A stretch of 64,000 nt of DNA from the NCBI GenBank assembly GCA_016214655.1, contig JACROC010000005.1, positions 195,078-259,077 of the forward strand, given 5' to 3'. The notes under the pieces were generated by a model that worked only from the letters and a program-made list of their open reading frames with translations, was not told the origin of the DNA and did not search any database. Below, in pieces: positions 891-54,163 of this stretch. The stretch's first letter is position 1. Each line of letters opens with the position of its first letter. The position numbers were made by a program, and so were the translations under genes. Source of the DNA: Candidatus Harrisonbacteria bacterium. GTDB lineage: Bacteria; Patescibacteriota; Minisyncoccia; UBA6257; 02-FULL-45-10c.

Positions 891-2477
891 TTATTCTATT
901 TTTATCGTAACCTTTCTAGGGTTAGTAGGTACGGTCTTAACATAAAACGGCCAAAGAGACACAGTGGCGCTCTTTAGGCCCGGCAAGGCAAAAACAGTAG
1001 TTTTAAGCTCAATTTCTGATTTACCGAGTATTTTAGATTTCAATTCCTCAGCGTTAATGCGCTTTGCCAGAATAGCTTTAAAATTCACTGGAAAAGTAAG
1101 GAGGCCGCGGTCGAAATCCGCTCTAGCTAATTCATAATCTAAAGTATTTTCTCTCATATCCAAATCTTCTCCATTATCGCGCTTAGCGCGTTTATCCAAT
1201 AACTCCTTAAGGTCATTCTCCTTAAACGCAATAATCGTCATTTGAGCCTCACTGAAAATTCCAAATGATCCGCCCTCATCAGTTTCCGAATCCACTTTTT
1301 GTTCCAGAACCTTATATCTGGTAGAGCCGTCCAAAACTTTAAATTCTTTTGGAATCTGCATTAAAAGCACAGTCTTAACTGAATCCTCCAGAGCAGCCTG
1401 AGCTTTTTCTTTTGCATTCTTGATATCGCTGTCCGTCGGATAAGCTACCTCCCCGATAAATCCGCCAGTCATATTGCCAGTGGATTCGCCATAAAATGAT
1501 TGATACTTTGGCGTACCCTTAAATCCGGGAATGGTAAACAATTTTACCGGACCGATATTATAATCCGGACCAGGTTTGTCAGCTGACACTTCGGTGTCAA
1601 TACTGGATGGAACTATCTTTCCTTCAACAATCTTGGCGCCCGGAACCGTAATGGTCTTAGTTAAACGATAAATTTTACCGTCCGGCGTAATAAACCTAGT
1701 CTGTTCCACCAACGGCTGAGGATCGGAGCTATAGCTGTTAAACACCGTTATCGTGCCGCCGGCTTTTCTTTCAACTTGCCTCCTGCCAGTAGCCGGAAAC
1801 TTCAGCTGAACATTCTTCTTCTCAGAAAAAACCTGGTTCGGGATAGTCATTTTAACCGGATCCAAAACTGCCGCTTTATCCGTAATAATTGAATCGTTAT
1901 ACGACCACTCCTGCGTTTGGGCGACAATAACCACAGTTGCACTTGGTAAAATTTTCAACAGATTAAACCCAAACACCGCAACAGTGAAAATCACGAATGC
2001 CCAGATAAAAAAACGCGGGCGGAATTCGGTGGCCGGAAGAGTAAATTCCGGCGGCGCGATCTCCGGTAATCTGAATTTCCATGACTTATCACTTTCCGGC
2101 ATCACCGGCTCTTCCACTGGCAACCTTTCTTCGGCTTCTTCCTGGAAAACTTTGGCAGCTGGCTTTCTTTTGGTAATTTTTACGGCTTTAGGCGCAACAA
2201 TATCGGAAAATTGCCTTTTAGTTTTAGCAAAAAACGGATTAAGCGCAGTAAGGCCGCTCATTTCCGCCAGCTCCACTATATGATCATCTACTGATTCTAT
2301 GCTGATTTTTTTCCCCAGAGCATCCGCTTCCCGTTTTAAAAGATGAAAATTACTGAGCGATTCGCCAAGATGAGAAAAACGGGGAATATTTAAAACTATC
2401 TCCTCGTCCGGAGCTTCAATAATCTTTTCAACGATAATTGCTATTTCGTCACTTTTATTTACGGAAATCTTCTTCAT
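891..2477 (-). CDS. hypothetical single-pass membrane protein (cytoplasmic N-terminal region, one TM, large extracytoplasmic domain)
   Basis: The 528-aa ORF has one hydrophobic segment, FFIWAFVIFTVAVFGFNLLKIL. It abuts the upstream ORF with a 0-nt gap, suggesting an operon. No family was recognised. Confidence 0.5.
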   Translation of the reverse strand: MKKISVNKSDEIAIIVEKIIEAPDEEIVLNIPRFSHLGESLSNFHLLKREADALGKKISIESVDDHIVELAEMSGLTALNPFFAKTKRQFSDIVAPKAVKITKRKPAAKVFQEEAEERLPVEEPVMPESDKSWKFRLPEIAPPEFTLPATEFRPRFFIWAFVIFTVAVFGFNLLKILPSATVVIVAQTQEWSYNDSIITDKAAVLDPVKMTIPNQVFSEKKNVQLKFPATGRRQVERKAGGTITVFNSYSSDPQPLVEQTRFITPDGKIYRLTKTITVPGAKIVEGKIVPSSIDTEVSADKPGPDYNIGPVKLFTIPGFKGTPKYQSFYGESTGNMTGGFIGEVAYPTDSDIKNAKEKAQAALEDSVKTVLLMQIPKEFKVLDGSTRYKVLEQKVDSETDEGGSFGIFSEAQMTIIAFKENDLKELLDKRAKRDNGEDLDMRENTLDYELARADFDRGLLTFPVNFKAILAKRINAEELKSKILGKSEIELKTTVFALPGLKSATVSLWPFYVKTVPTNPRKVTIKIE

Positions 2478-3683
2478 TTATGTCACCAGCCATCGCACGC
2501 GCCTATTCGCCAGATGGCTCATTTTATCATTTTGCGGAAGAAAATTAATTTCTAATAATGCCGCGAGAATAGTCGCGAGATTCTTCACAGAAACCGAATG
2601 TTTAAATTGTACCTCAAAACCGGATTTTTCGATAATGAGATTTGTAGATAGAGGCAGAAGCTTAATAGGCTTTTGAAACCGGCTATGAAAACGGTCGGAA
2701 AAAATGAGTGGCGGCAAATTAAAAAAAGAATTAACATAAATATCCGAAGACTCTTTCTCAACTAAAGTTTCCAATCCATTGGCGAACATCTGCAATTCTT
2801 TCAACAAGATATTTTCAAACCTCCGGAGAAAATTCTCCGAAGCATTTTCAGCAGAATAGCTCTGGATAATAGTTTTAGCGATCAATGGATCTACCTTAAG
2901 ATAGCGTCCCAGCAGATGAGTCAGGTCGTTCTCGCCCCATTCAAAATTATCCAAATGTCCAAGCCGGCCGCTGGATGAAAAATAAATTGAGGTCTGGTTG
3001 GGGAAAAGGTTCGCAATGAAAAACCGGTCTTGCCCGGCAATTCTGGAAAAAACATGGCTTATGGCAGTGCCAGCTTCGGTAACCAGCGCAATATTTTCTT
3101 TAGATAATAAATCCCGGAATCCGCGCATCAAATCCCGCGAAGTGAATGTCTGACTAAAATAAATCTCTACTGCCTTCGCCTTAAATCCAATGGGATTAAC
3201 AATTTTATGGCCATCCAACCTGATACCGCGGATACGGACGTCGCCTAACAAAACATCCACGTCATCGATATTCATTTTTTGGGCAACTTTCAAACGGTGA
3301 CGGTCAAAAAATCTCCAGATCGCCTGTGAAATCAAATTATCAATATCCGCCTCGTCGATGGTTTCTTTAGAATTCGGGCGCACTAAAGAAATGGAAGAAT
3401 AAATTGTGGTGGCGAAATCGGAATCCAAACTTAAAATGATTTTATATCTGTGCAGTTTCCTTACGTTTTTCAGCAAGAACTTGATTTCCTTCAAAATATT
3501 GAAAGTGCTGAATTCCGCAACCAGGCTCACCCAATTTCCCAAGATCCTGATTTTTTTCTTTTCAAAATCAGCTTTCAAAACCGTAACCTGCACATAATGA
3601 TTCAGCGCCTCGATCAAAAGATACCTATCGCCCCGGAAGAGCAAATTGGCCAGGAATTCTTTTATGTAATTTAGTCCCAACAC
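2478..3683 (-). CDS. putative actin-fold ATPase (PilM/FtsA-like)
   Basis: The 401-aa ORF has an N-terminal beta-hairpin pattern (LLIEALNHYVQVTVLKAD) and a middle region resembling sugar-kinase/Hsp70/actin-fold proteins of the PilM/FtsA type. This is weak similarity by eye only. Confidence 0.35.
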   Translation of the reverse strand: MLGLNYIKEFLANLLFRGDRYLLIEALNHYVQVTVLKADFEKKKIRILGNWVSLVAEFSTFNILKEIKFLLKNVRKLHRYKIILSLDSDFATTIYSSISLVRPNSKETIDEADIDNLISQAIWRFFDRHRLKVAQKMNIDDVDVLLGDVRIRGIRLDGHKIVNPIGFKAKAVEIYFSQTFTSRDLMRGFRDLLSKENIALVTEAGTAISHVFSRIAGQDRFFIANLFPNQTSIYFSSSGRLGHLDNFEWGENDLTHLLGRYLKVDPLIAKTIIQSYSAENASENFLRRFENILLKELQMFANGLETLVEKESSDIYVNSFFNLPPLIFSDRFHSRFQKPIKLLPLSTNLIIEKSGFEVQFKHSVSVKNLATILAALLEINFLPQNDKMSHLANRRVRWLVT

Positions 3684-3734
3684 TTTTTATTATAACACAT
3701 ATAGGCGATTAGCGGTTAGCGACTAGCGACTAGT

Positions 3735-3761
3735 TAAAAAAACGGCTCATTTTGAGCCGTT
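3735..3761 (-). terminator. intrinsic terminator hairpin (aacggctca-ttt-tgagccgtt) with a U-run on the minus strand
   Basis: A 9-bp perfect stem with a 3-nt loop overlaps the stop codon of the 3760..3969 ORF. It is followed on the minus strand by UUUUUU. Confidence 0.5.
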
Positions 3762-10988: not shown

Positions 10989-11015
10989 TTGACACTAAAA
11001 ACTAAAACCTATAAG
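10989..11015 (+). promoter_or_regulatory. candidate sigma-70 promoter for rpmB (TTGACA-N15-TATAAG)
   Basis: A consensus -35 TTGACA lies at 10989..10994 and a -10-like TATAAG at 11010..11015. The spacer is short at 15 nt. The ATG is about 17 nt downstream with no Shine-Dalgarno sequence. Confidence 0.3.
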
Positions 11016-11031
11016 CTAAAAGCTATCTTAC

Positions 11032-13711: not shown

Positions 13712-13741
13712 AAAAAACTCCGACTTTAATCGGAGTTTTCT
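13712..13741. terminator. bidirectional terminator hairpin between convergent genes (aaaactccga-ctttaa-tcggagtttt)
   Basis: A 10-bp stem is flanked by A- and T-runs. It lies between the plus-strand ORF ending at 13708 and the ndk stop at 13741. Confidence 0.55.
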
Positions 13742-14259
13742 TATTCAAGGACACTATCCAAGTTTACATCATACAAAATCTTCTCGCGAACACTCTTATA
13801 ATTCACCAACTCGCTATCCTTAAACCAAACTTTGGTTTCTTTTTCCGCATCATCGGTGCTGGAAGAAGCGTGCACCAAATTCCTTACTGCACGTCCGTCT
13901 TTATCGGCGAGATCATAAGAATCCAAGGTAAAATCGCCGCGGATTGTGCCAACATCAGATTGAAGCGGTTCAGTTGAACCAACTAATTTTCGCACTACGG
14001 GAATTGCTTTATTGCCTTCCAATACCATCGCCACTACCGGGCTGGCAGACAAAAACTTAGCCAGATGATCAAGTATAGTCTGTGGAAGATTAGGATTTAT
14101 TTTATAATGCATATATGCCTGTTCCTTAGTTGGAAGCAAAAACTTCATAGCCACAATCTTCAGTCCAGCCTTTTCAAACCGGCCGACAATCTCCCCAACC
14201 AGATTCCGCTGGACTGCGTCAGGTTTTAATAAAACTAGAGTTCTTTCTTTAACATTCAT
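13741..14259 (-). CDS. ndk: nucleoside diphosphate kinase
   Basis: The N-terminus ERTLVLLKPDAVQRNLVGEIVGRFEKAGLKIVAMK is the canonical NDK start. The active-site region reads NLVHASSS. Confidence 0.85.
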   Translation of the reverse strand: MNVKERTLVLLKPDAVQRNLVGEIVGRFEKAGLKIVAMKFLLPTKEQAYMHYKINPNLPQTILDHLAKFLSASPVVAMVLEGNKAIPVVRKLVGSTEPLQSDVGTIRGDFTLDSYDLADKDGRAVRNLVHASSSTDDAEKETKVWFKDSELVNYKSVREKILYDVNLDSVLE

Positions 14260-20120: not shown

Positions 20121-20492
20121 TTATGATTTTTTGGTCAACTCATCTAATTTTTCTAACGTGTTTGCTTCCAATTCTATTTTTTGATCTTCGTATTCCGCTT
20201 GTATAGATTCCAATTCTGACTTTAAAAAATTATTTAACGTTTCATTTTTAACGCTCAAGTATCCTTCCTCCAGCATATTAGTTAAAATATCCAGTTGCCC
20301 CGGCGTAGCGGTATCTAAAATTCCAACAATGGCGGCCTTAACATCATCGTCTAAAGAGGAAGTCGCCAGCAAAAATCCCAATTTTCTTCCCTGGGCATCG
20401 GCCAAATCCAAAATCTGTTCCTTGGATAATTCTTCAATTTTTAATTGTTCTTTAGCCATAAGGTTAATTTTTTTATTTAAATACATCGCCAT
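20121..20492 (-). CDS. hypothetical acidic coiled-coil protein
   Basis: The 123-aa ORF is followed by the hairpin ccgcc-aacag-ggcgg and a U-run (20090..20115). It overlaps the upstream ORF by 20 nt. Confidence 0.4.
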   Translation of the reverse strand: MAMYLNKKINLMAKEQLKIEELSKEQILDLADAQGRKLGFLLATSSLDDDVKAAIVGILDTATPGQLDILTNMLEEGYLSVKNETLNNFLKSELESIQAEYEDQKIELEANTLEKLDELTKKS

Positions 20493-23367
20493 ACTTTTTT
20501 TCCAATTTTAATATTGTATCCGCGATATGCTTAGCCAAAAATCTTGCCCGCGGACTTTCCCCTTTCTCGGATCTCACAAGTTTATCCACCACCTTCTTTA
20601 AAAAAGCAACTTCAGCTGCTCCTGATTCTACCTGCTGCCGACTTGAAACTAATCCACTCGATGACTTCTCGTGCATAACTTCTAACCAATCTTTTTTTAA
20701 AAGCTTTTTGCCCGCTTTAGAGAAATGCTCCATAATATCTCCCCCTTCGTGGCCAACGCCAATGATTTCATTTTTGGCATTAACTCGGAAAAGAACTGGG
20801 ACGCCATCAACTCTTATAGGCTTCACCCGCACCCCTTCATCAATCATATCTTTTATAATAGTTTTATGCGCTTCAGCCGCTTCTGAAAATACCGTTGGCT
20901 TTTTTCCCGCCGCTACTTCGACTAAATATTGATGCGCCCGTTTCAGATAAGCTTCAACGCTCTCATTCTCCCTAATGGGAAGGTCAGTTTCTTTATGCAT
21001 TTTCTCAATTAATTTCTTGGCTTCCGCCCGCAGTCCTTCCTCGTGCCAATCTAAAGTCTTGCCGACATGCGCCCCGAATTCTCCTTTTTCAGCATCAGCC
21101 GCGGAAATTCCTTTAATGACTTTCCACACCTCTTCATCTTCCTTCCCCCTAAAAATACTCTTAACATCTTGTAGGGTAGCTTCTGTACCATCTAATTTTG
21201 CGGCAATATCCTGCCGTGCCAATTTACTGGTTGCCCGGATCAAAAATTCCTCTATGGTTTCGCCCTGTTTTGGCGACTCTTGCGACTTTTTCGCCAGCTC
21301 TTTTATATAATCCAGCAACTGCTGTTGATTTTTAATTTCCGACCTCTCCAATTTTTCACCAACCATCGTAAATTTATAATCATCCGACAAAACTTCAGTA
21401 GCTTTTAGCCTGCTATGCACTGCCAACTCTTCCGCTCCTCTTTTCCCAATTTTCCCAAACCATCCTCCATAAATTCCCCTCATATCAGATTCTAAATTTT
21501 TAGGTCCATGGAATTCCTGTATTTGCACGGCAACCGCAACGTCATGTTCCCTGACTTTTTCCAATACAGCCCTAGTTTCTTCTTGGGGATTCCAATGATA
21601 CTCATGCTTATTTGATACCTCTACCGTGTCATCTGATTTTAATAAATAAACAGACGGGTCCTTGGAATCCAAAACCCTGATTTCCTCGCCGGTTGAAGGA
21701 ATAATAAAATGATTTTTAACCGCTAATTCATAAGCTTGATGCTGAGCCCATTGGTGCAAAGCCAGCTTATCACTTAAATCTCCGTTATAGCCATGAGATG
21801 CCGGATCGGCTTCCAATTGCCGAACAAAAGCATGGGTTATACCTTCGCCCTTATGAATCGTAGCCAATTCGCGCACGTGCTCTAATTTCGCAACTTCTAC
21901 TACTGCCCTTTCGGATTTTAATTCTGATATTTTAGCTCCTTCGGCTTGGGCGGTTGCCGCTGCCTTTGCCTCAACTAATTTCCTAGCTGCTTGTTCTGGA
22001 TTTTCCGATAAACCAATATAAGACAATAAACGCCGTGCATTCATCACCCAATTTTCTCCACCTTGTTTCGCGGCCTCACCCAATTTGCCTTCTGATACGG
22101 CGCCCCAAAACTTTTCTGCGCCTTCCCGCATAGTTAATGTCCCGTTACGGAGCGCAACTTCAAATTCTACTAACCCTACCGCCCTAAAAAGTTTGGAGTA
22201 AGCCGCAACCGCTTCAGCCGTGGTCTGAAGTTTACCCTTTGTTTCTCTATTAAAAAGATTAAACGTAAGTCCATTAAAAGTCTCTCGCGCCGCATCAATG
22301 GTCAAATTTTTAGCCAGAAAACCCAATTTTTCTACTTGACTGCCCTCTTTTTGGAAATGTTCTTTCTCATAATTCTCAGCCGCTTTTACAGCACGTTCTC
22401 CTATAGCCAAGCCGGTGTAACCAACTGTCCGCAGCCACGGCATCATAACCATAATTGAAGCAGTATTAACTGCTTCTCGCGCCACCACCATTCCTTGGAC
22501 CGAATTATTTATATATAAATCTAAAACTTTACCGACTTTTTCAGTACGAGCCTTATCTGAATTCTTTCCCTCCTTTCGATAATCCCTTAAAATTTGCGCC
22601 ATCTCTTTTCTCAAGGCCAATTTTTCCTTGGCTGGCAACTTGGCTTCTTTTAATTGTTCGTTTAATGCTCCGATTTTAGCAGCTACTGGATTAGTTACCA
22701 ATTCCTCCACGCCTTCTGGTAATTCTTTCTTTTTTAATCTCACTTCTTCTAAAAGTGCAATAGTTGATTCACTAATTTTTCCCCGCTGTTCTTTCTTTTG
22801 GAAATAGTCGCGGATTAATTTTGGCGCTTCCAGAAAGAATCGCGCACCAAAAACAGAACCAAGCGTATCTAAAACGCCTTTCCCAACAAGTGCCTGAATA
22901 CTTTTAGGTTCTTCAAATCCTCTTCGTTCTGCGCGGCTCTCTTCTATTTTCTTTTCTAATCCTGATTTTCTGGCTTCACTGGATGCTTTTTCCTCTGGCG
23001 TCATCATTTCCTCGGCTTTTGCTTCTCTTACTTTTTTTTCCTCTGCCTTAGCTTTTACTTCCTGCTCCTTTGCCAATTTAGTTGCTATTTCAGCATCCTT
23101 CGCCATCTTTTCAGCTTCTGCCATCCTTTCTTTTTCAATCGCGGCCAATTGCTTCGGACTTGGCGGCGCAGGAGGCAAAGATGCTAACGGAACTTCTGCC
23201 TCTGGAAACACAACTGCTGGTTTCTCAGCAGCTGCTGCTTCCGGTTGGTCTAGTGACCGAACTTTTTGCGGCACCCCTAAAGTTTCTATTGGCACCGGCT
23301 TTACGGCTTCCTCTGGCTTGGGTTGTGCTTTTGGTGGTCTTTCGCTCATATTAATTAAATTATACAA
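20473..23367 (-). CDS. large hypothetical protein (964 aa) with a Pro/Ala/Lys/Glu-rich low-complexity N-terminal third
   Basis: It is a long uninterrupted ORF. There is no signal peptide or TM segment by eye and no catalytic motif was recognised. Confidence 0.5.
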   Translation of the reverse strand: MYNLINMSERPPKAQPKPEEAVKPVPIETLGVPQKVRSLDQPEAAAAEKPAVVFPEAEVPLASLPPAPPSPKQLAAIEKERMAEAEKMAKDAEIATKLAKEQEVKAKAEEKKVREAKAEEMMTPEEKASSEARKSGLEKKIEESRAERRGFEEPKSIQALVGKGVLDTLGSVFGARFFLEAPKLIRDYFQKKEQRGKISESTIALLEEVRLKKKELPEGVEELVTNPVAAKIGALNEQLKEAKLPAKEKLALRKEMAQILRDYRKEGKNSDKARTEKVGKVLDLYINNSVQGMVVAREAVNTASIMVMMPWLRTVGYTGLAIGERAVKAAENYEKEHFQKEGSQVEKLGFLAKNLTIDAARETFNGLTFNLFNRETKGKLQTTAEAVAAYSKLFRAVGLVEFEVALRNGTLTMREGAEKFWGAVSEGKLGEAAKQGGENWVMNARRLLSYIGLSENPEQAARKLVEAKAAATAQAEGAKISELKSERAVVEVAKLEHVRELATIHKGEGITHAFVRQLEADPASHGYNGDLSDKLALHQWAQHQAYELAVKNHFIIPSTGEEIRVLDSKDPSVYLLKSDDTVEVSNKHEYHWNPQEETRAVLEKVREHDVAVAVQIQEFHGPKNLESDMRGIYGGWFGKIGKRGAEELAVHSRLKATEVLSDDYKFTMVGEKLERSEIKNQQQLLDYIKELAKKSQESPKQGETIEEFLIRATSKLARQDIAAKLDGTEATLQDVKSIFRGKEDEEVWKVIKGISAADAEKGEFGAHVGKTLDWHEEGLRAEAKKLIEKMHKETDLPIRENESVEAYLKRAHQYLVEVAAGKKPTVFSEAAEAHKTIIKDMIDEGVRVKPIRVDGVPVLFRVNAKNEIIGVGHEGGDIMEHFSKAGKKLLKKDWLEVMHEKSSSGLVSSRQQVESGAAEVAFLKKVVDKLVRSEKGESPRARFLAKHIADTILKLEKKYGDVFK

Positions 23368-23447: not shown

Positions 23448-24590
23448 CTAAACTATTACTCCTCCACCGAGCATTCGACCCTCGTCATCATAAAATACAG
23501 CAGATTGACCGGAAGCAACGAATTTTTGGGATTTATTAAATACTAATCTAAGGTCTTGCGATGACCTTAATATTAATTTTGCCTTTGCTAAAGGTTGGCG
23601 ATAACGAACGCGAGCAAGTACTTGAGTCATGAATTTTGAATTATGAATTATGGGATTGATCAAATTAACGCCTTTCAAAATAACTTCTTTACAAAACAAA
23701 GCTGGATTATCGTCTCCTTCGGCTACAAGTAAGGTATTAGTTTTAATATCCTTTTCCGCAACATAAGACGCCCTTCGTTCATTTTGACCCTTAATTCCTG
23801 ATTCATAATTCTTAATTCCAAGATGCCGCTGGCCGATCGTATAAAAATGCGCTCCGCTATGCTCGCCAACCACCTTACCGGCGGTATTCAAAACCAAACC
23901 GCGCTTTTGCGGAAGATAATTGCCCAAAAAATCTTTAAGAGTCACTTGGCCCAAAAAACAAATCCCCTGCGAATCCTTTTTCTCCGCATTCGGCAGACCG
24001 AACTTCTTCGCCAGCTTCCTCACCTCCGGCTTGGCATAGTCCCCGATCGGAAATAAGCAATGCCTAAGCTGGTCTTGCGTCAAAGTCCAAAGAAAATAGG
24101 ATTGGTCCTTTTGCGCGTCCCGCGCAGCGTATAGGGTATAGGGTATAGGGTATAGTGATTTTTTTCTAGTTTTACTAAACCCTGAACCCTGACCCCTAAC
24201 CCCTAATCTCACATAATGCCCAGTCGCTACATAATCCGCTCCCATTTCCAGTGCCTTTTTCAAAAACAAGCCGAACTTTATCTCTTTATTGCACATCACA
24301 TCCGGATTCGGCGTAATGCCGCTTCGATAACCATCGATCATGTATTTCACCACCTTCTCTTTATATTCTTTTTCAAAATCAAAGACATAAAAAGGAATAC
24401 CCAAAACCTCCGCAGCTCTCCGCGCGTCTTCAGCATCCTGCTCCGCGCACCCGTCAACGTTATAGCATTTCATATGCGCGCCAATTACCTCATATCCTTT
24501 TTGTTTAAGCAATGCCGCGGCAACTGAAGAATCTACGCCTCCGGACATTGCACAAAAAACTTTTTTATTTTTCACGTTTGACATATTCAA
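23448..24590 (-). CDS. mnmA: tRNA-specific 2-thiouridylase MnmA
   Basis: The PP-loop reads KVFCAMSGGVDSSVAA. Conserved stretches include GHYVR..., KDQSYFLWTL and KKDSQGICFLG. It contains an in-frame insertion encoded by simple-sequence repeats (see the repeat feature). Confidence 0.85.
   Translation of the reverse strand: MNMSNVKNKKVFCAMSGGVDSSVAAALLKQKGYEVIGAHMKCYNVDGCAEQDAEDARRAAEVLGIPFYVFDFEKEYKEKVVKYMIDGYRSGITPNPDVMCNKEIKFGLFLKKALEMGADYVATGHYVRLGVRGQGSGFSKTRKKSLYPIPYTLYAARDAQKDQSYFLWTLTQDQLRHCLFPIGDYAKPEVRKLAKKFGLPNAEKKDSQGICFLGQVTLKDFLGNYLPQKRGLVLNTAGKVVGEHSGAHFYTIGQRHLGIKNYESGIKGQNERRASYVAEKDIKTNTLLVAEGDDNPALFCKEVILKGVNLINPIIHNSKFMTQVLARVRYRQPLAKAKLILRSSQDLRLVFNKSQKFVASGQSAVFYDDEGRMLGGGVIV
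24118..24210. repeat. simple-sequence inverted array (TATAGGG)x3-4 ... (AACCCTR)x4 lying in-frame inside mnmA
   Basis: The sequence is tatagggtatagggtatagggtatag ... aaccctgaaccctgacccctaacccctaa. It encodes an extra loop (LGVRGQGSGFSKTRKKSLYPIPYTLYA) relative to E. coli MnmA at the same position (RADVDGKSRLLRGL). Confidence 0.6.
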
Positions 24591-25046: not shown

Positions 25047-25688
25047 ATGAATAAACCTGAATCCAAAACTCCTATTAATCCGATCATTAAAGTAATGATT
25101 TATTCCGATTTCCTGGTTCTGTCGGCTCTTTCCATCTACGGACCGATTTTTGCGCTTTTTGTTACCCGGCAAATCACTGGCGGCTCAGCACAAGTAGTCG
25201 GATTTGCCGCGGCCAGCTATTGGCTCACCCGGTCAATCGTCCAATTGCCCATATCAAGATTTTTAGACAAATATGACGGCGAAAAAGACGATTTCTGGGC
25301 AATGGTTATCGGCTCAATTTTATTTAGCGCAGTACCTATTTTATTTATCTTTGCAAAAATGCCTTGGCACATCTATCTTTTTCAAGCAATTTACGGCTTA
25401 GCCGACTCCTTAGCAGTTCCTACTTATCTAGCAATTTTTTCCCATCACATTGATAAAGAAAAAGAAAATTTTGAATGGGGTTTGCACTCAGTCTCAATTG
25501 GAATCGGCGTTGCTCTTGGAGCGGCGAGCGGTGGTTATCTGGTAGATAAGGTGGGGTTTAACGTAATCTTCATATTGACTAGCATTATTACTTTTCTAGG
25601 CGCAGCAGTATTAATTACCATTCGGCAAACACTGCTCACTAAACCGCAACCAGTAATACCAATCATTACGAGAAAAAACCATATCTAG
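25047..25688 (+). CDS. MFS-like half-transporter (6 predicted TM helices)
   Basis: The 213-aa ORF has six hydrophobic segments typical of one MFS half. An extended -10 (TGtTATAAT, 25030..25038) lies only about 9 nt upstream of the ATG, so the mRNA is possibly leaderless. Confidence 0.5.
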   Translation: MNKPESKTPINPIIKVMIYSDFLVLSALSIYGPIFALFVTRQITGGSAQVVGFAAASYWLTRSIVQLPISRFLDKYDGEKDDFWAMVIGSILFSAVPILFIFAKMPWHIYLFQAIYGLADSLAVPTYLAIFSHHIDKEKENFEWGLHSVSIGIGVALGAASGGYLVDKVGFNVIFILTSIITFLGAAVLITIRQTLLTKPQPVIPIITRKNHI

Positions 25689-26983: not shown

Positions 26984-27961
26984 TTATTTTAAAACTATCC
27001 GGCGCAATTTGTAAGCATTCCCATGCCTCAATAATCCCAAATAAGAATTTATGATTTCTGGTTTTGGCAATTCTTGTATCCTCTTCATCATCCTTCTTTT
27101 AGTCGTTGTCCTTAATATCCGATGATCTAAAAAATTCACCCAGCCAAGAAAATCCACTCCGGAAGCAAGAGTTTTGATGGAAACTTTATTCGGGTGAAGC
27201 TCTAAAGATAATGTCTCATTCAGGAACGCTCTTATAAATAAGAGTGAGCGATTTAATGATTCTTTGTTTTCAGACAAAATCACAAAATCATCCGCATATC
27301 TTATGTAATATCTGGCCTTTAGTTTGTGCTTCATAAATCGGTCAAATTCATTCATATAGATATTGACTAGTAATTGGGAGGTTAGATTGCCTAGCGGCAA
27401 GCCGATTCCTGGCTTAACCTCAAAGCTATCAATGACTCTATCCAATAACCATAAGATATCTTTGTCTGGAATATGGCTGACCAGAATCTTCTTTAAGATG
27501 GAATGGTCAATATTGGCAAAGAATTTCTTGATATCGCACTTTAATATCCAGTAAGTTTGAGTGTTATTTTGACTGACTTTGTAGGAAAAATCCCGAAATC
27601 GGTTAATGGCTTTATGAGTTCCTTTGTTTAGACGGCAGGAATAGGAATCGGCAATAAAAATTTGGTCAAAAAATGGGTAGAGTATCCTATATATTGCGTG
27701 GTGTAATAATCTGTCTCTTACTTGGGCTTTATGGATATTTCTGGGTTTAGGGTCGCAGATATTGAATGCCTGGTACCCGCCGTGTACATACGTTTGGTTG
27801 CGAAGATCATTATGAAGCGATAGGATATTATCCATCAGATTAAAAGAGAATTCCTGGACATCTGGCTTGCTCCTTTTCCCTCTTACAAATTCTTTCCAGG
27901 CCTCTAATAAATTCTCAATGCTAATAATATCTTCAAATTTATGGCGCAATTGAATTTTCAT
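26984..27961 (-). CDS. DGR reverse transcriptase
   Basis: The 325-aa ORF contains RT motifs 1-7. YADD lies within ARYYIRYADDFVIL. The DGR-diagnostic motif 4 reads LPLGNLTSQLLVNIYMNEFD (I/LGxxxSQ). Its size is typical of DGR RTs. Confidence 0.9.
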   Translation of the reverse strand: MKIQLRHKFEDIISIENLLEAWKEFVRGKRSKPDVQEFSFNLMDNILSLHNDLRNQTYVHGGYQAFNICDPKPRNIHKAQVRDRLLHHAIYRILYPFFDQIFIADSYSCRLNKGTHKAINRFRDFSYKVSQNNTQTYWILKCDIKKFFANIDHSILKKILVSHIPDKDILWLLDRVIDSFEVKPGIGLPLGNLTSQLLVNIYMNEFDRFMKHKLKARYYIRYADDFVILSENKESLNRSLLFIRAFLNETLSLELHPNKVSIKTLASGVDFLGWVNFLDHRILRTTTKRRMMKRIQELPKPEIINSYLGLLRHGNAYKLRRIVLK

Positions 27962-27985
27962 AAAAATAATTTTTCCCGGGAAGCG

Positions 27986-27996
27986 CCCCCCCCCCC
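27986..27996. repeat. homopolymeric C11 (G11 on minus) tract in the 40-nt RT/avd divergent intergenic region
   Basis: The sequence gcg-ccccccccccc-gac lies 25 nt upstream of the RT ATG and 6 nt upstream of the avd TTG start. Confidence 0.9.
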
Positions 27997-28001
27997 GACT
28001 T

Positions 28002-28370
28002 TTGCCGCTAATCCAGAAAACTAAGGACGCCTATCTGCTTTGGTATGGCTATTACCAAATCCTGCCTAAACTCCACCGGCACTCTCTAGGTCAGAAAGTT
28101 GATACTCTTTTTGTTGAAATTATAGAAATGCTCTCAACAGCCAATTTTCTTATCAGAGAAGAAAAATTGCCCTATGTTCGTGTGGCTATAAGAAAAGCAG
28201 ATACGCTGAAGATATTTTTAATGATGCTTTGGGAAACTAAATCGCTGGATAATAAAAAATACATCGCATTATCAACACAAATAGGCGAAATAGGCAGAAT
28301 GCTAGGCGGTTGGAGCGGCCAGCTTATCAAACAAGCTCAAGATAAACAAAACTCTCCTGACAAAAAGTGA
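28002..28370 (+). CDS. avd: DGR accessory variability determinant (Avd, four-helix-bundle family)
   Basis: The 122-aa ORF starts at TTG. Its C-terminal helix TQIGEIGRMLGGWSGQLIKQAQDKQ resembles Bordetella phage bAvd AEVGRILGSWIARVNRKGQ. It is encoded on the strand opposite to RT, TR and VR. Confidence 0.75.
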   Translation: MPLIQKTKDAYLLWYGYYQILPKLHRHSLGQKVDTLFVEIIEMLSTANFLIREEKLPYVRVAIRKADTLKIFLMMLWETKSLDNKKYIALSTQIGEIGRMLGGWSGQLIKQAQDKQNSPDKK

Positions 28371-28388
28371 GGAGAGAAATGAAGAGAG

Positions 28389-28514
28389 TTTCGAGAACGG
28401 CAGACGGATCGTTAACATTCCAGTCGTTGTCAAGCCAGTTGTAGTTCCAGTTCCACCTGCCATCGTTCCAGTACAGATACAGGACGTAGCGGTTGCCATT
28501 CGGGTTCCGAAGAA
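28389..28514 (-). repeat. DGR template repeat (TR), 126 nt
   Basis: It is 111/126 identical to the VR. All 15 mismatches are T on the plus strand, which is A on the minus sense strand. The minus-strand translation is Asn-rich (RNPNGNRYVLYLYWNDGRWNWNYNWLDNDWNVNDPSAVL), the AAY-codon signature of TRs. Confidence 0.85.
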
Positions 28515-28783
28515 TTATATGGAATATCGTCTGTGCCACCACCCCTTGAATACTCTTAGAGTTGTATCGTATCCGGTATATCATTCAGTAGAATGACCTA
28601 CTGGGTTAATACCTTAATATTCCATACCAAGTATCTTCATTTTTTGTTGAAGTGTCTGCATACACCACTCTATCCGAAACCGTGATCGCGGATACTCCCG
28701 ATGTATGGATACTGGGTTCGGTAGCGGAAAACCGTAATCGTCCGCGTATTCACCTACTGCCAAATTTATTTTAGCAAAAAAAT

Positions 28784-28817
28784 AATCCCCTGCACAGGCT
28801 TGCCTGTGCAGGGGATT
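28784..28817 (-). terminator. 15-bp perfect hairpin (aatcccctgcacagg-cttg-cctgtgcaggggatt) downstream of the VR, with a U-run on minus
   Basis: The stem-loop sits about 55 nt 3' of the target-gene stop. It is followed on the minus strand by UUAUUUUUUU. It resembles the conserved GC-rich hairpin found 3' of the VR in DGRs and also acts as the target-gene terminator. Confidence 0.6.
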
Positions 28818-28870
28818 CTAAGGGCTAAGTTGCAAAGGGCATACAGTGCAAAGTAACCCAGTACTGAAGA

Positions 28871-29506
28871 CTAACTTGCGAGAACGGCAGACGGACCGTC
28901 AACATCCCAGTCGCTGCCAAGCCAGTTGCAGCTCCAGTGCCACCTGCCATCGAACCAGTACAGACACAGGACGTAGCGGTCGCCATCCGGGTACCGAAGA
29001 ACCGTTCCATCAAAGAAGATGAAACGGATGTTGCCGTTCACCTTCTCTTTCCACGATTCGGGGATGAGGAGCTGGTTCTCCCAGAGCGTCTGGAAGACCT
29101 TGGCATCCAGGCGGATGTGACCCGCCTTCTTCAGCCGTTTCAGCTTTTCCTCACCGGTGATCGACGTCTCGTTCGGATTGAGCATCGTCTCGAAGCGGAC
29201 CTTGGACAGGTCGACTTCGGTGAGCGCCTCCGAACGGGCGTCCGTGTCTTCGCCGACAACCGACCAACCCTTGCCGATGAAGGCGACGGGGTCGAACGGC
29301 TTGGCGCGATCGATCTTCAGGATCTTCGGTTCCCCGACGAGGACCTTTCCGCCGTTCTTGAGGAAGGCAGTGAACTGCTGTCCCGCCTGACGAGGGTCGT
29401 TGATGATTTTCTGGATGGTGTCGCTATCCAGATTGTCCCAGTCTGCGTTGTTAGCGAGGACTGAGAACAGGTTGAGGGACTGACCGGTAGTGATGGCTTT
29501 TCCCAT
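28871..29506 (-). CDS. DGR target protein (variable C-terminal domain; likely C-type-lectin/FGE-like fold)
   Basis: The 211-aa ORF is preceded by AAGGAG about 8 nt upstream. Its C-terminal 41 aa (RYPDGDRYVLCLYWFDGRWHWSCNWLGSDWDVDGPSAVL) are encoded by the VR. The gene body is about 57% GC against about 37% for the adjacent RT. Confidence 0.85.
   Translation of the reverse strand: MGKAITTGQSLNLFSVLANNADWDNLDSDTIQKIINDPRQAGQQFTAFLKNGGKVLVGEPKILKIDRAKPFDPVAFIGKGWSVVGEDTDARSEALTEVDLSKVRFETMLNPNETSITGEEKLKRLKKAGHIRLDAKVFQTLWENQLLIPESWKEKVNGNIRFIFFDGTVLRYPDGDRYVLCLYWFDGRWHWSCNWLGSDWDVDGPSAVLAS
28876..29001 (-). repeat. DGR variable repeat (VR), 126 nt, ending 5 nt before the target stop codon
   Basis: It is the counterpart of the TR. 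On the sense strand the 15 differences are A to G x10, A to C x2 and A to T x3. The 3' end of the VR (CTCGCAAG) diverges from the TR (CTCGAAAC), as expected for IMH versus IMH*. Confidence 0.85.
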
Positions 29507-31895: not shown

Positions 31896-33521
31896 TTATT
31901 CTTGTTCACCCATATCCTCAAAATCATCGTCTAATGTGTCGGCAGAACTTAAGGCCTTTGCCAAAGCGGATTTTAAATCAGTAATATCCACCTTTTTCTT
32001 TTCTTGCTTCGGCACTTCCGGCATAGCTGGTTTTGGGATTACCGGTACAACCGGTTTTGGCATTGTCGGAACGGTCTCCTTTGGCGCCACCCCAGAAAAA
32101 GGTTTCGGTGGGCGAGACGATAAAGATTTGCGCCGCTCCGGACTGCCGACAAAAGAATCAATCGGCTTTAAAACTTTGATCAACGGCAGTTCGCCTTTTC
32201 TGGATATCTTTTCTTCTGCCGCCCTTTCTCCCCCCGCCATCCATTCCCCGGCTATTTTTTCTTCAACAATTTTTTTCGGGGTGCTATATTCTCTCCGACT
32301 ATTTTCTATAATTACATCTTTAAAATTTTGATCCGGTATTTTATAAGGAGAAATACCAGTTGCCGAGAACGGCCGGGAAGAAATGCCGTCAATTAAAAGT
32401 TTGATATAAAAATTATGTTTTGGGAGATTTACGAAGTCATTGGCCATAAAATCCGGCTGAAATTCCTTTTCCAAAAATTCCGCGTCTTCAGCGCCGATTC
32501 TATAAGAAACTATCGTCCCGACATTGCCAAAAATAGCATCCCGGACTTTAGTATTGGTGTCATGAACCAATTGCCGGATATATTGGTGGGCCAGAATAAG
32601 ACAAAGGCGATATTTTCTGGCTTCAGATAAAATATTAGCAAAAGAATCAGTAGCGAAATTTTGAAACTCATCAACATAAAGATAAAAGTCTTTGCGGGCG
32701 CTCTCCGGAATATCCACCCGGGACATGGCTGCCAGCTGAAGCTTGGTAATAATCAGAGCGCCTAAAAGTGCTGAATTATCCTCTCCAATTTTTCCTTTAG
32801 ATAAATTTACAATCAAAATTTTTCCCTCGTCCATTATTTTCCGCATATCAATAGAAGACCGGGACTGGCCCAAAATATTACGTATGAGCGGATTAGTAAC
32901 AAACTGTCCAACTTTGTTTTGAATTGCGGCGGTGGCCTCAGTTTCAAATTTCTGGCTGTATTTTGCAAATTCATTTACCCAAAAACCTTTTACTACCGGA
33001 TCTTTTAAGCTATCCACAACCTTTTTACGATAATCTTTGTCATTGAGCATACGCATAATCCCAAGCAAAGTAGAGCCGGGATACTCAAGTAAAGCAAGTA
33101 GGGTATTATTTAAAATGTATTCCATCCGAGCAGACCAAAGATCAACCCAAATTTTTTTAAATACACCCATGATTCCGGATGCTACTAAATGCCGGAATTC
33201 AGTCCCAACCTGCTCTAAAGGATTAAAAGCAATCGGATAATTCATGTCTGAAGGATCTATATAAACCACATCTTTAATACGCTCTGCCGGAACAAAATCC
33301 AGCAATTTTTCAGCAAATTCGCCGTGCGGATCCACTACTCCAACACCTCGGCCAGAAAGAATGTCGGCAATCACCATATTCTCTAAAAAAGTCGTTTTCC
33401 CCATTCCAGTTTTCCCGACCACATACATATGGCGACGGCGGTCATCCATTTTAATACCAAATTCTATCTGCCGGTTACGGAAGTTGATTATACCAAAGGG
33501 GGTTATTTCATCTTTAATCAT
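31896..33521 (-). CDS. FtsK/TraG/VirD4-like P-loop ATPase (type IV secretion/DNA-translocation coupling-protein family)
   Basis: Walker A reads YVVGKTGMGKTT and Walker B reads FYLYVDEFQNF. It is 541 aa with a Pro/Lys-rich acidic C-terminal tail. It is co-oriented, with a 22-nt gap, with a membrane-protein gene. Confidence 0.65.
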   Translation of the reverse strand: MIKDEITPFGIINFRNRQIEFGIKMDDRRRHMYVVGKTGMGKTTFLENMVIADILSGRGVGVVDPHGEFAEKLLDFVPAERIKDVVYIDPSDMNYPIAFNPLEQVGTEFRHLVASGIMGVFKKIWVDLWSARMEYILNNTLLALLEYPGSTLLGIMRMLNDKDYRKKVVDSLKDPVVKGFWVNEFAKYSQKFETEATAAIQNKVGQFVTNPLIRNILGQSRSSIDMRKIMDEGKILIVNLSKGKIGEDNSALLGALIITKLQLAAMSRVDIPESARKDFYLYVDEFQNFATDSFANILSEARKYRLCLILAHQYIRQLVHDTNTKVRDAIFGNVGTIVSYRIGAEDAEFLEKEFQPDFMANDFVNLPKHNFYIKLLIDGISSRPFSATGISPYKIPDQNFKDVIIENSRREYSTPKKIVEEKIAGEWMAGGERAAEEKISRKGELPLIKVLKPIDSFVGSPERRKSLSSRPPKPFSGVAPKETVPTMPKPVVPVIPKPAMPEVPKQEKKKVDITDLKSALAKALSSADTLDDDFEDMGEQE

Positions 33522-34980: not shown

Positions 34981-35117
34981 TGTATTTATTATAAAATTTC
35001 TCTTATCAATTAGCAAAGATATTTAATTAGAGGTCACAAATTTTAAAACGTTATTATTAAAAGAACAAAGTGAATAAAAACTACTAGATTCTAGATATTA
35101 GATCCTAAATTCTGCAA

Positions 35118-43234: not shown

Positions 43235-43240
43235 AAAATA

Positions 43241-43315
43241 GTACGTAGTACGTAGATCGTAGGGCGTAGTTTATAAAATTTCTACGAACTACGGGCTACT
43301 GCCTACAACCTAAAT
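43241..43315. repeat. inverted short-repeat array immediately upstream of dnaJ ((TACGTAG)-like x4 ... (CTACG)-like x4)
   Basis: The sequence is gtacgtagtacgtagatcgtagggcgtag - AT spacer - ctacgaactacgggctactgcctac. Confidence 0.6.
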
Positions 43316-44286
43316 TATTTTAAAACGACAATTTCCCTGCTCCTCGATTCCAATGCCAATCTGGCGAAACCGGTTAAAATAGCCAATTGATAAACCAAAT
43401 AAGCCGGAATGGCAATAACCCAATGAAATAACGATCCGACTCCTTTTAGCGTCAAAAATAGCAAGGCACCCACGGCAATCGGAATAGCGGCGCGGAAAGA
43501 TTCCGGAATTTTCTTAATTTGATTGAAAACAAAACCATACAGGACATCAATAATTTTATCCGTTCCCTTAAAAGAAATTCCGTATTGGCTTGCCTGCTTA
43601 CTCAACTGTCCAACGGTTTGAGAAATCAAAGAATTCCTTGCACTGATCGGCAAAGCAGCTGCTTCGGCGCCCAACTGCTTAATAACCAGGGATTCTACCA
43701 ATTTAGTCATAGTCATATTCAGCGAAAAATCCTTAAAATAGAATTTCTGAATTAGCGGCTCTGCCGGCAATAAGATAGATTTAATGTTCTGCTCGGAAAC
43801 CATCCCTCCGCCGGCAACTACGTAGATAATACTAATAAAAATAGCTAAAGCGGTCAGGGTGTATGACATAACCGCCTTTTCAAATTGGAAAAATCTGATC
43901 TTAAGTTGATTATCTAATTGCTCCCTCCCCATTCTAACGGCAAGCCACCAAAATAGAATTAATAAAAACCAGGCGGATAAAATAACCGAAGAAAATAATC
44001 TGATCGAGACAAAAGTTAAAGCCAAACTTTCTAATAAAATAATGATTCCGATAATTTGCTTACTCTTGATGAAGAGCGTCTGGAGTAAAAACACTATCAA
44101 AAAAGCAACCGCCGAAAATAAGGCCGGCAATAGTTGGCTCGATCCATTATCTAAAACTGCCAAGTTCAAGAAAAAACCAAACAAACCGGACAAAAGAACG
44201 CCGATTACCCCCAACCCAATGACCTTAGGCTTGGAAGTATCCACAGATACCTCATCCGTTAATTTAGCTCCAGTTAAAGAATCCAT
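43315..44286 (-). CDS. hypothetical polytopic membrane protein inserted between dnaK and dnaJ
   Basis: The 323-aa ORF has multiple TM helices. No family was recognised. Confidence 0.5.
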   Translation of the reverse strand: MDSLTGAKLTDEVSVDTSKPKVIGLGVIGVLLSGLFGFFLNLAVLDNGSSQLLPALFSAVAFLIVFLLQTLFIKSKQIIGIIILLESLALTFVSIRLFSSVILSAWFLLILFWWLAVRMGREQLDNQLKIRFFQFEKAVMSYTLTALAIFISIIYVVAGGGMVSEQNIKSILLPAEPLIQKFYFKDFSLNMTMTKLVESLVIKQLGAEAAALPISARNSLISQTVGQLSKQASQYGISFKGTDKIIDVLYGFVFNQIKKIPESFRAAIPIAVGALLFLTLKGVGSLFHWVIAIPAYLVYQLAILTGFARLALESRSREIVVLK

Positions 44287-46144: not shown

Positions 46145-46217
46145 AATGTTTAGACATCAGGCATAAGTTATAAGAAATAAGAATAAATTTTAATTCTTAT
46201 GGCTTGTGACTAATTTC

Positions 46218-46676
46218 TTATTTACTAAGCTTAACTCTTGCCGGCCGAATGACCTTATTTTTTAATTTATATCCGGAACTTATTTCAGCCGCAATTTTTC
46301 CAGATTCTAATTCTTTTACCTCCATTTCTCCGACTGATTCATGAATACTAGCATCAAACGGATCGCCTGGAGAAACTTTGATTTTTTCCAACCCATATTT
46401 TTTTAACATATCCTCCAGCTGAATTTTTATCCTCTGCAAACCATCGTTATTAGTTTCTACTCTAAGCGCCAATTCCATACTATCTAAAACCGGAACCAAA
46501 TCGCCAATCACCACTTCTCTGCTGTAATTCATCATTTCTTCAAACCGTTTAGCTTCGTCTTTCTGATAATTAATCAGATCTGCCTTGGCGCGCCTCCAGC
46601 CATTCAAGTACTCTTCACATTGCTTTTTCAATTCATCAAGCTCGGTAGTATTAGGTTGTTTTTGCTGTTCCTCCAT
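46218..46676 (-). CDS. grpE: nucleotide exchange factor GrpE
   Basis: The 152-aa ORF has a coiled-coil N-terminus and the GrpE core RRAKADLINYQKD...VIGDLVPVLDSMELAL. Confidence 0.85.
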   Translation of the reverse strand: MEEQQKQPNTTELDELKKQCEEYLNGWRRAKADLINYQKDEAKRFEEMMNYSREVVIGDLVPVLDSMELALRVETNNDGLQRIKIQLEDMLKKYGLEKIKVSPGDPFDASIHESVGEMEVKELESGKIAAEISSGYKLKNKVIRPARVKLSK

Positions 46677-46680
46677 AAAA

Positions 46681-46795
46681 CTATGATACTAATATACAAA
46701 TGGTACTAATGATACGAATGATACTAATTCTTTTTTATATTCGTATGATTGGTATCATTCGCATGCATTAGTATATTGGTATCGCATTATTTTAA
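46681..46795. repeat. dispersed intergenic element, copy A (GATACTAAT direct repeats - AT spacer - ATTAGTATC inverted copies), immediately upstream of grpE
   Basis: It is near-identical at both ends to copy B at 58962..59062. The conserved blocks are ctatgatactaatatac(a/g)aat...tactaatgatacgaat and tagtatcattcgcatgcattagtatattggtatcgc(a/g)tta. Confidence 0.7.
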
Positions 46796-54162: not shown

Positions 54163-54163
54163 T

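Follow-up and report, generated by a model that had tools for sequence, protein, structure and literature searches.

How does a gene for a conserved housekeeping enzyme come to carry, inside its reading frame, a palindrome built from tandem copies of a 7-nucleotide (nt) unit? The question is raised by mnmA in a 64,000-nt stretch of DNA from Candidatus Harrisonbacteria bacterium (contig JACROC010000005.1), called the window below, where the two inverted arrays of such an element are translated as part of a tRNA-modifying enzyme. The current work shows that the element belongs to a previously undescribed class of 7-base-repeat hairpins, which fill gene junctions and protein loops in related ultra-small bacteria; a literature search found no paper linking heptamer repeats with bacteria of the candidate phyla radiation (CPR). 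As to its nature, the reading we prefer, and to which we give about an even chance, is that of a palindromic insertion or expansion element of heptanucleotide repeats, similar in behaviour to the Rickettsia palindromic elements (RPE) and kept where a frame-preserving, self-pairing insert was tolerated.

The gene and the parts of its repeat arrays are as follows.

23448–24584, minus strand: mnmA coding sequence (tRNA 2-thiouridine(34) synthase), intact, 378 aa from the ATG at 24584
24175–24209, minus strand: arm 1 of the hairpin; in the sense strand, five UAG-type heptads (AGATTAG, GGGTTAG, GGGTCAG, GGTTCAG, GGTTTAG)
24158–24174, minus strand: A-rich apical spacer of the hairpin, encoding part of S-K-T-R-K-K-S
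24130–24157, minus strand: arm 2 of the hairpin; in the sense strand, CACTATA and three copies of CCCTATA (CUA-type), encoding LYPIPYTLY
24113–24125, minus strand: GC-rich mini-hairpin GCGCG-GGA-CGCGC, directly 3' of arm 2, over the A-R-D-A codons
23790–23821, minus strand: second heptad array, in loop 2 after TIGQRH; sense GGAATTA, AGAATTA, TGAATCA, GGAATTA, encoding LGIKNYESGIK
23621–23657, minus strand: third heptad array, in loop 3 before ARVRYRQ; sense ATAATTC, ATAATTC, AAAATTC, encoding PIIHNSKF

The element is enclosed by an uninterrupted minus-strand open reading frame (ORF) at 23448–24590, which matches all three MnmA Pfam domains (tRNA_Me_trans at 8e-74, together with the _M and _C domains). 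A 100% identical protein of 378 aa (P0001) is annotated as MnmA on a 271,595-bp contig of a Candidatus Harrisonbacteria metagenome-assembled genome. The element proper takes up about 80 bases (24130–24209) and consists of two arms with an A/T spacer between them. Read directly on the plus strand, three TATAGGG units and one TATAGTG (24130–24157) are followed by the 17-nt A/T spacer atttttttctagtttta (24158–24174) and then by CTAAACC, CTGAACC, CTGACCC, CTAACCC and CTAATCT (24175–24209). Tandem Repeats Finder reports both arrays with period 7, the first at 24129–24155 (3.9 copies, 100% matches) and the second at 24175–24206 (4.6 copies, 88%). Including the GC-rich mini-hairpin, the whole element is translated into VRLGVRGQGSGFSKTRKKSLYPIPYTLYAARDAQ. 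The in-frame inverted array of 7-mers that an initial annotation had described inside mnmA is therefore present in an intact, translated ORF, but that annotation had overlooked the two further arrays of the same gene. These, in loops 2 and 3, lie about 140 nt from each other; the one is the inverted complement of the other, and the two pair in the minimum-energy fold (z = -2.1).

For comparison, 160 mnmA-centred ortholog loci (L001–L160) were drawn from genomes and metagenomes, forming with the window a first set of 161, and ten further loci (L161–L170) were added by exact-protein look-ups. The element of the window folds at -39.7 kcal/mol (z = -2.6). In more distant orthologs the two arms persist but are made of other heptads: TAGAA:TTCTA in L164, L001 and L165, TAGCG:CGCTA in L167, TAGCC:GGCTA mixed with TAGGG:CCCTA in L166, and TAGAG:CCCTAG in L011. 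In an RNAalifold analysis of nine sequences, 24 pairs were predicted, 10 of which show pair-preserving changes on both sides; 87.5% of the cells are paired on this structure, compared with 29–47% when the partners are slid by 1–3 columns, and the observed covariation was reached in none of 500 shuffles. The core pairs of UAG:CUA (U-A, A-U, G-C) almost never vary. The GC-rich mini-hairpin is also kept in folds of orthologs, with altered stems (GCGCA..UGCGC, GCUCGC..GCGAGC). The palindromic character first claimed for the element is thus borne out by folds and by compensatory pairs. With the terminal pair set aside, G-U and A-C mismatches are equally frequent, and so give no indication whether the paired molecule is mRNA or single-stranded DNA.

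The same orthologs bear on the proposal that the element is a G-quadruplex or telomere-like motif. The sense strand of the window, GGGG-TTA-GGGG-TCA-GGG-TTCA-GGG, fits the quadruplex motif, and Xanthomonas and Nostoc are known to have heptamer repeats that form quadruplexes (PMC4692102). However, GGG is replaced by GAA, GCG, GCC or GAG in orthologs that keep the pairing of the arms: four or more tracts of three or more G are present in the window, L161, L162 and L163 and are replaced in L164, L001, L167, L166 and L011. The G-runs are therefore not the conserved feature, which leads us to reject the quadruplex or telomere reading; the telomere-like TTAGGG units once pointed out in the element are incidental, since heptads of the types TAGAA, TAGCG, TAGCC or TAGAG stand in their place in orthologous elements. 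An assembly artefact, a possibility raised at the outset, is contradicted by the recurrence of the element in independent assemblies from NCBI, JGI and ENA, and chance is ruled out by the period-7 scan, the array density of mnmA and the TAG-spacing counts given below. We regard quadruplex, artefact and chance, even taken together, as hardly credible.

The closest relatives of the window show how long the element has been in place. In L161, L162 and L163, at 70–75% MnmA identity, the loop likewise has 34 residues and is built of the same heptads, (UUUAGGG)n and (CCCUAUA)n, and the codons of arm 2 are identical in all three. At identical residues, codon identity is 0.77–0.90 inside the element and 0.50–0.57 in the rest of the gene. 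The total length is the same although arm 2 counts 4 units in the window and 5 in L163, which means that the boundary between spacer and array has moved. The mnmA element is old, stably inherited and now part of the protein. The suggestion that such arrays are mobile or expanding does not hold for this copy as far as recent movement or instability is concerned, because the loop and its heptads are common to relatives at 70–75% identity, and because its synonymous sites are more conserved than those of the remaining gene.

The reading frame carries its own record. The heptad of arm 1 that falls in frame has CAG in place of TAG, as its codon layout and frame analysis show; the in-frame heptad has CAG in the window and L161 and AAG in L162 and L163, while neighbouring heptads read UAG. 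In nine orthologs checked, the mnmA frame alone is open; the other five frames contain 0–5 stops each, almost always at least one. Judged from these sequences, the closed alternative frames and the replacement of TAG by CAG or AAG may be taken as signs that the element originated outside coding sequence.

Because 7 is not divisible by three, adding or removing a single unit would change the frame and could switch mnmA on and off, as in a contingency locus; background remarks in PMC4679880 mention contingency genes with heptanucleotide repeats in other bacteria. Nevertheless, no frameshifted copy occurs among 161 mnmA sequences, each of which was recovered by tblastn as a single segment, and the ORFs are continuous in the 33 that were checked; the absence of a frameshift reported initially thus extends to 161 of 161 sequences of the first set. 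The arrays have only 4–5 imperfect units, the length of 34 residues stays constant in four relatives despite the change in the unit count of one arm, and the host genes are housekeeping genes. Phase variation was therefore rejected on the lack of frameshifted alleles, and we give it very little probability.

At the protein level, loop 1 has 14 extra residues in comparison with the solved MnmA 2HMA, so that the first estimate of about 27 aa against 14 was roughly right, and loop 2 has 5 more. In an AlphaFold2 model of the window MnmA (mean predicted local distance difference test score, pLDDT, 88.9), the loop-1 insert is placed at the tip of a β-hairpin, between strands 126–129 and 149–152. The three heptad-coded segments are the low-confidence stretches of the model, with pLDDT below 50 at residues 133–140 (loop 1) and 55 at residues 261–270 (loop 2), whereas the rest of the protein is at 90 or above. 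The inserted peptide is thus predicted to lie disordered at the MnmA surface with the fold undisturbed. The peptide IIHNS(K/S/R)F, which in the window comes from the (ATAATTC)n array of loop 3, recurs in the C-terminal domain of MnmA relatives (P0002, P0008, P0010, P0024, P0025) at a more C-terminal loop ('FIIHNSKF'); the same type of heptad array is therefore found at two places of the MnmA family.

Loop 1 varies greatly across the orthologs. In its minimal form it has 15–19 residues, as in Bacillus, and in Parcubacteria it reaches 80 aa. Two-arm heptad hairpins occupy it in the window and in L001, L011, L081, L082, L093, L110, L120, L125, L130, L135, L137 and L143; one-arm arrays are found in L004, L013, L015, L025, L029, L031, L056 and others. 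Long palindromes of unique sequence, perfect or nearly so, take the same place in L160, L146, L095/L101, L107 and L144/L049. These reach about 60–80 codons, as in L160 (cttggacacggagtgtctaag...cttagacactccgtgtccaag). In L081 and L130 the arrays are broken by an extra GC-rich hairpin-like segment of about 20–30 nt (catgcctaccggcaggcagg in L081), which looks like a nested insertion. Element types in loop 1 are common to close relatives and not to distant ones, and loops 1 and 2 show a mosaic of presence, absence and replacement among proteins at 65–75% identity; together these observations argue for vertical inheritance with turnover.

The preference for a period of 7 is not confined to mnmA. 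A lag-identity scan of the window gave seven arrays at period 7 and none or one at every other period from 4 to 12, and across the fetched loci, too, period 7 alone is enriched. The trio TAG-N4-TAG-N4-TAG occurs 21 times in the window, in nine array arms, where 0.29 are expected. At a spacing of 7 nt, no trinucleotide of the 64 is as strongly enriched as TAG/CTA, whether in the window (21 observed, 0.13 expected) or in the 160 other loci after removal of mnmA (42 observed, 2.7 expected). Beyond this core the units are diverse. The 187 arrays yield 118 different canonical heptads with no dominant unit, and judged by these units they do not appear to form a single sequence family; single-linkage grouping of the heptads into families was abandoned because the A-rich units made nearly all of them merge. 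GC-rich mini-hairpins adjoin 15 of the 187 arrays (7.2 ± 2.6 expected), an enrichment too weak to regard them as a general seed of the arrays. At the gathering threshold an Rfam scan gave only four tRNAs, with chance-level microRNA-like matches on the mnmA element. Promoter and terminator scans over 43–55 kb gave counts equal to the shuffled expectation, and for this reason two weak promoter-like matches inside arrays were not accepted as evidence.

Period-7 arrays are common across many Parcubacteria/Paceibacteria loci and essentially missing from the loci outside the CPR (Bacillus, Leptotrichia, verrucomicrobial and others), among which only L062 has one. The class of heptad hairpins is specific to the Paceibacteria/Parcubacteria lineage. 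Within these loci mnmA is the principal host. The density of arrays is 4.7 per 10 kb within mnmA and 0.54 outside it, compared with at most 0.28 per 10 kb at all periods other than 7. In a census in which all ORFs of the loci were clustered into families, mnmA has 106 arrays in 167 members (59 members with at least one), while families of 20–72 members hold 0–3. The arrays of mnmA fall in a few stretches that include variable loops: 48 lie in loop 1 (TGHY to KDQSYF), 17 between GQR and RYR, 17 after RYR and one near the N-terminus. The other hosts are also housekeeping proteins, which we take, by eye, to be TsaD, LeuRS, AlaRS, GluRS, ProRS, cysteine desulfurases, IscU, LigA, GatA, a CobO-like protein and Adk. 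In L151, an ORF of 531 aa at 1966–3558, presumably TsaD/Kae1-like, contains five separate period-7 arrays, and its neighbours, by eye IscU-like and NifS-like genes, have one each.

In the window itself, the remaining heptad elements are the following.

49941–50029, plus strand: two-arm element, closest sister of the mnmA element, filling the cysS-dnaB gap; (KTTAGNG)x4, A/T spacer, (CTATACC)x4
43235–43314, minus strand: two-arm element in the gap between a hypothetical gene and dnaJ; (NNCGTAG)x4, spacer, (CTACGNN)x4
46152–46218, minus strand: two-arm element between grpE and dnaK; ATAAGAA-type and TTCTTAT-type heptads
54163–54300, minus strand: long degenerate two-arm element between ftsI and a Mur ligase gene; TCTAAAT-type heptads
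3701–3737, no strand assigned: single-arm array (NNTAGCG)x5, adjoining an intrinsic-terminator-like hairpin, downstream of alaS
10991–11026, plus strand: single-arm array (CTAAAAN)x5, whose end lies 7 nt ahead of a small plus-strand ORF with its ATG at 11034
35084–35113, no strand assigned: single-arm array (CTAGATN)x4, just past the stop of a sigma-region-4/HARE-HTH gene

All of the further sites listed by the initial annotation exist, and the gene names DnaJ, DnaB and Mur ligase given there are right; its two-armed description fails at 3701–3737, which, like 10991–11026 and 35084–35113, has a single arm without an inverted partner, and the two-arm element between grpE and dnaK had escaped notice. 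Two-arm elements fold as 'beaded' hairpins, in which helices of 5–6 bp are interrupted every 7 nt. In the cysS-dnaB element (fold z = -6.05), the TAG that stops cysS is the start of arm 1, and arm 2 runs up to the dnaB ATG; a covariance model built from mnmA elements only finds it with 50.5 bits (E = 5e-13). It shares the heptads CTATACC and KTTAGNG with the mnmA copy, which no other copy of the window does, and in arm 2 the two copies match at 29 of 31 positions, arm 1 being related. The dnaJ element (fold z = -3.2, 16.2 bits with the same model) has the upstream stop and the start codon at the base of its predicted helix. The small ORF at 11034 we take, by eye, to resemble ribosomal protein L28; the array in front of it agrees with arm 2 of the L143 mnmA element in 28 of 30 positions and has the same variant unit.

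Filled and empty states of these junctions can be compared in the syntenic relatives L168–L170, which have the same gene order and 85–89% DnaB identity.

cysS-dnaB gap: window, 80 nt with two arms; L168, 70 nt with two arms of different heptads (GCGACTAG / CTAGTCG); L169, 20 nt; L170, 10 nt
grpE-dnaK gap: window, 73 nt; L169, 6 nt; L170, 10 nt
ftsI-mur gap: window, 129 nt; L170, 9 nt

Where close relatives have 6–20 nt between the genes, the window thus has 80, 73 and 129 nt, and these intergenic copies must be insertions or expansions, as was first proposed for the arrays at large. In L168, as in the window, the first TAG of arm 1 is the cysS stop and arm 2 ends at the dnaB ATG; the 20 nt of L169 consist of three CTAACAA-like units. 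A self-pairing insert would restore the short distance from stop to start that is seen in the relatives, and the pairing at junctions may be kept because the helix brings stop and start back together.

The filled and empty sites could also be the work of non-autonomous mobile elements, similar to miniature inverted-repeat transposable elements (MITE), REPIN or RPE and moved in trans by a transposase, with the mnmA copy as one old, frame-preserving insertion. Presence and absence at the three junctions, and likewise at loop 1 of mnmA (15–19 aa in some orthologs, 34 aa here), would agree with this. So would the two similar copies in one genome, the match of 10991–11026 to an array of a different species at a different site, the nested insertions inside the arrays of L081 and L130, and the similar two-arm hairpins that the covariance model finds outside mnmA in several genomes. 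Yet the arrays have no consensus beyond period and TAG, as their 118 canonical heptads show. Neither terminal inverted repeats distinct from the arms nor target-site duplications were seen in them, the filled and empty sites being too diverged for base-by-base alignment, and no transposase or HUH domain is present among the approximately 58 ORFs of the window. Heptads differ at one and the same junction between close relatives (window and L168), the short one-arm versions at cysS-dnaB in L169 and L170 look like local growth, and the arms of loops 2 and 3 flank 140 nt of conserved coding sequence, beyond the reach of a single insertion. Transposition in trans therefore seems to us an improbable explanation.

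REP/BIME and REPIN elements (PMC3116915) are comparable in being short palindromes between co-directional genes that form mRNA hairpins and are present or absent at orthologous junctions. They differ in sharing a sequence with a GTAG-type 5' motif and a RAYT transposase, in lacking tandem heptads, and in being untranslated.

A more serious alternative is that the arrays are functional cis-elements. As hairpins of mRNA or single-stranded DNA, they might act in pausing, processing, stability or the coupling of translation; or else they might be sites at which an oligomeric protein recognises UAG/CUA every 7 nt, on RNA in the manner of HutP or TRAP, or on DNA in that of the omega repressor. The expression of a tRNA-thiolation enzyme would then be under such control in mnmA. 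A reader of this kind would account for a UAG:CUA core that is nearly invariant while neighbouring paired positions co-vary, for the top rank of TAG at 7-nt spacing in the window and in other genomes, and for the constraint on synonymous sites of the mnmA element. The same heptads in two unlinked copies of one genome point in this direction, as does the fact that all four syntenic relatives have a period-7 array of some kind directly in front of the dnaB ATG, if with differing units, and the enrichment in a single gene suggests a gene-specific benefit.

The likeness to HutP is one of pattern only. HutP binds the model ligand (UUUAGUU)3, in which UAG triplets are 7 nt apart (3 + 4), and two such clusters are separated by a linker of 12–17 nt (PMC2425495). 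The arrays described here offer at least three NAG triplets at fixed short spacing (the 21 TAG trios above), in heptads such as UUUAGGG and AUUUAGA that resemble this ligand, and in two clusters with a spacer of 12–17 nt within a hairpin. However, both HutP clusters lie on one transcribed strand, whereas the second arm is here the complement, CUA; and many sites lie within coding sequence or between cistrons rather than in one leader.

The omega repressor of plasmid pSM19035, a ribbon-helix-helix protein, binds contiguous 7-bp heptads of consensus WATCACW. Its operators agree with the present arrays in being made of contiguous 7-bp units, direct and inverted, around promoters. They differ in their shared consensus, TAG being all that is common here, and the covariation of the arms points to pairing of strands rather than to recognition of a duplex. 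Among the approximately 58 ORFs of the 64-kb window there is no HutP, TRAP, ribbon-helix-helix or cold-shock-domain protein.

Further difficulties for a functional role arise from the arrays themselves. Many arrays in coding regions of other lineages lack TAG (AAGTTCA, GCAAAGT, AATTTAA and others); heptads agree within a site but change from one site to the next, which indicates local duplication rather than recognition; syntenic relatives manage with gaps of 6–20 nt at the same junctions; and the equal counts of G-U and A-C mismatches reveal nothing specific to the RNA sense strand. On balance, we consider a cis-acting function unlikely, although it ranks ahead of the other alternatives. A bolder version would make the heptads the cis half of a Paceibacteria-wide system, in which UAG/CUA heptads are read or written by an oligomeric protein, or else by an enzyme whose footprint is 7 nt. 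It would control hairpins at cistron junctions and in mRNAs for tRNA modification and translation, with mnmA as the main target and with feedback on the thiolation of tRNA-Lys/Gln/Glu through the hairpin loop rich in Lys codons. This is a speculative idea, to which we attach a low probability.

Among known repeats, the Rickettsia palindromic elements, reportedly described by Ogata and co-workers in 2000, are the nearest in behaviour. They too are short palindromic hairpin DNA found in frame in conserved housekeeping genes, translated into a surface segment that leaves the fold intact, and have intergenic members. The mnmA element shows the same in-frame insertion with a preserved ORF, a stable palindromic hairpin and, in the AlphaFold2 prediction, a surface peptide without disruption of the fold. 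Because the intergenic copies behave as insertions or expansions, the comparison with RPE is apt for what the element does; it was already drawn in the initial annotation and holds for behaviour (in frame, translated, hairpin, also intergenic), but not for sequence. RPE families are defined by a consensus of about 100–150 bp, which the heptad elements lack: their arms are tandem 7-nt repeats that vary by site, and only the period, the two-arm plan and the TAG/CTA core are shared. In addition, the hosts here are CPR bacteria (Parcubacteria), mnmA has been struck recurrently at the same loops, and the arms co-vary over long divergence.

In construction, the nearest known repeats are the heptanucleotide repeats of bacteria, such as STRR of heterocystous cyanobacteria and TAACTGA of Beggiatoaceae (PMC4679880). 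In both cases exact, head-to-tail 7-nt units are favoured over other periods, mostly in 2–6 copies, often immediately upstream of start codons and with stop triplets. The former, however, consist of one or a few fixed heptamers per genome, direct and almost wholly intergenic, whereas those described here are diverse, typically have an inverted arm and are frequently in frame in essential genes. According to the background given in PMC4679880, heptanucleotide repeats outnumber all other classes of long simple-sequence repeats in several bacterial genomes, for which polymerase slippage has been put forward as an explanation. An excess of long 7-nt repeats was reportedly noted by Mrazek and co-workers. 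By analogy, this known but unexplained excess in some bacteria may serve as a precedent for an origin by slippage.

An insertion or expansion element, our preferred reading, could then have arisen as follows. Short 7-nt units would be amplified by replication slippage, and the array would be mirrored into an inverted arm by fold-back or template-switch copying. Such an element would persist only at sites of low harm, of which two kinds may be distinguished. One is a short gap between co-directional genes, where the helix would rejoin the upstream stop and the downstream start; the other is a disordered surface loop, given a length that is a multiple of three and an in-frame heptad without TAG. 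The hairpin would neutralise the insertion, and the pairing of the arms would afterwards be maintained, either because selection favours it or because one arm is repeatedly corrected against the other. Maintained pairing of this kind would explain both the compensatory changes and the frozen synonymous sites.

Several observations weigh against this account. Conservation at the nucleotide level in four lineages whose synonymous sites are otherwise near saturation is not easily explained by a mutational or selfish origin, and such an origin does not explain why TAG/CTA should be the top trinucleotide at 7-nt spacing. The approximately ten-fold preference for mnmA over its neighbours is also left unexplained. 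The near-identity of arm 2 in the mnmA and dnaB copies could mean copying between sites or a shared trans-acting reader, and not independent local growth. Finally, single slippage steps of 7 nt break the frame, so that growth within the gene needs steps of 21 nt or the insertion of a ready-made array.

Some features of the neighbourhood may be recorded in their own right. About 2.4 kb from mnmA lies a complete diversity-generating retroelement (26984–29506). It comprises a reverse transcriptase (26984–27961, minus strand; RVT_1 at 1.4e-24), a bAvd-like accessory gene (28002–28370, plus strand), a template repeat (28389–28514) and a variable repeat (28876–29001) at the 3' end of an ORF of 211 aa (28871–29506, minus strand). 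In the minus-strand reading, all 15 mismatches between template and variable repeat are at template adenines. A link between this reverse transcriptase and the heptads was considered and dismissed, since it has its own template and variable repeats and is absent beside mnmA in the relatives. Between the start of the reverse transcriptase and the bAvd-like ORF, a run of about 11 C at about 27980–28000 ('agcgcccccccccccgactt') could be a slippage-prone tract or an assembly weakness.

Directly downstream of mnmA, a Lys/Glu/Ala-rich protein of 964 aa (20473–23367) has no Pfam match; L161, L162 and L163 lack it in the syntenic region and have comEC next after mnmA. A TrwB/VirD4-like type IV coupling protein (PF10412, PF02534) is encoded at 31896–33521 in otherwise housekeeping surroundings. 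TATAAT-like hexamers stand about 5–12 nt upstream of many start codons of the window (for example those of the genes at 2478–3683, 13741–14259, 25047–25688, 43315–44286, 46787–47488 and 47562–48470), and only about 9 of 57 genes have a GGAGG-like Shine-Dalgarno sequence. At the sequence level this suggests that leaderless mRNAs, or mRNAs with very short leaders, may be widespread in this genome. The genes of the window end in TAA (42), TAG (9) or TGA (6).

If the preferred reading is true, ultra-small CPR genomes tolerate, and may even use, self-pairing hairpins of 7-nt repeats, which supply essential enzymes with new peptide loops and fill out operon junctions. They would then provide a second independent case of translated palindromic DNA after Rickettsia, of quite different construction. 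In the annotation and modelling of protein families, heptad-coded low-complexity inserts should be expected in MnmA, aminoacyl-tRNA synthetases, TsaD and cysteine desulfurases of Parcubacteria. The preference for mnmA, the near-invariant UAG:CUA core and the frozen synonymous sites are left unexplained by a purely selfish model, and they make it a testable question whether a reader or writer with a 7-nt register exists in these uncultured bacteria.

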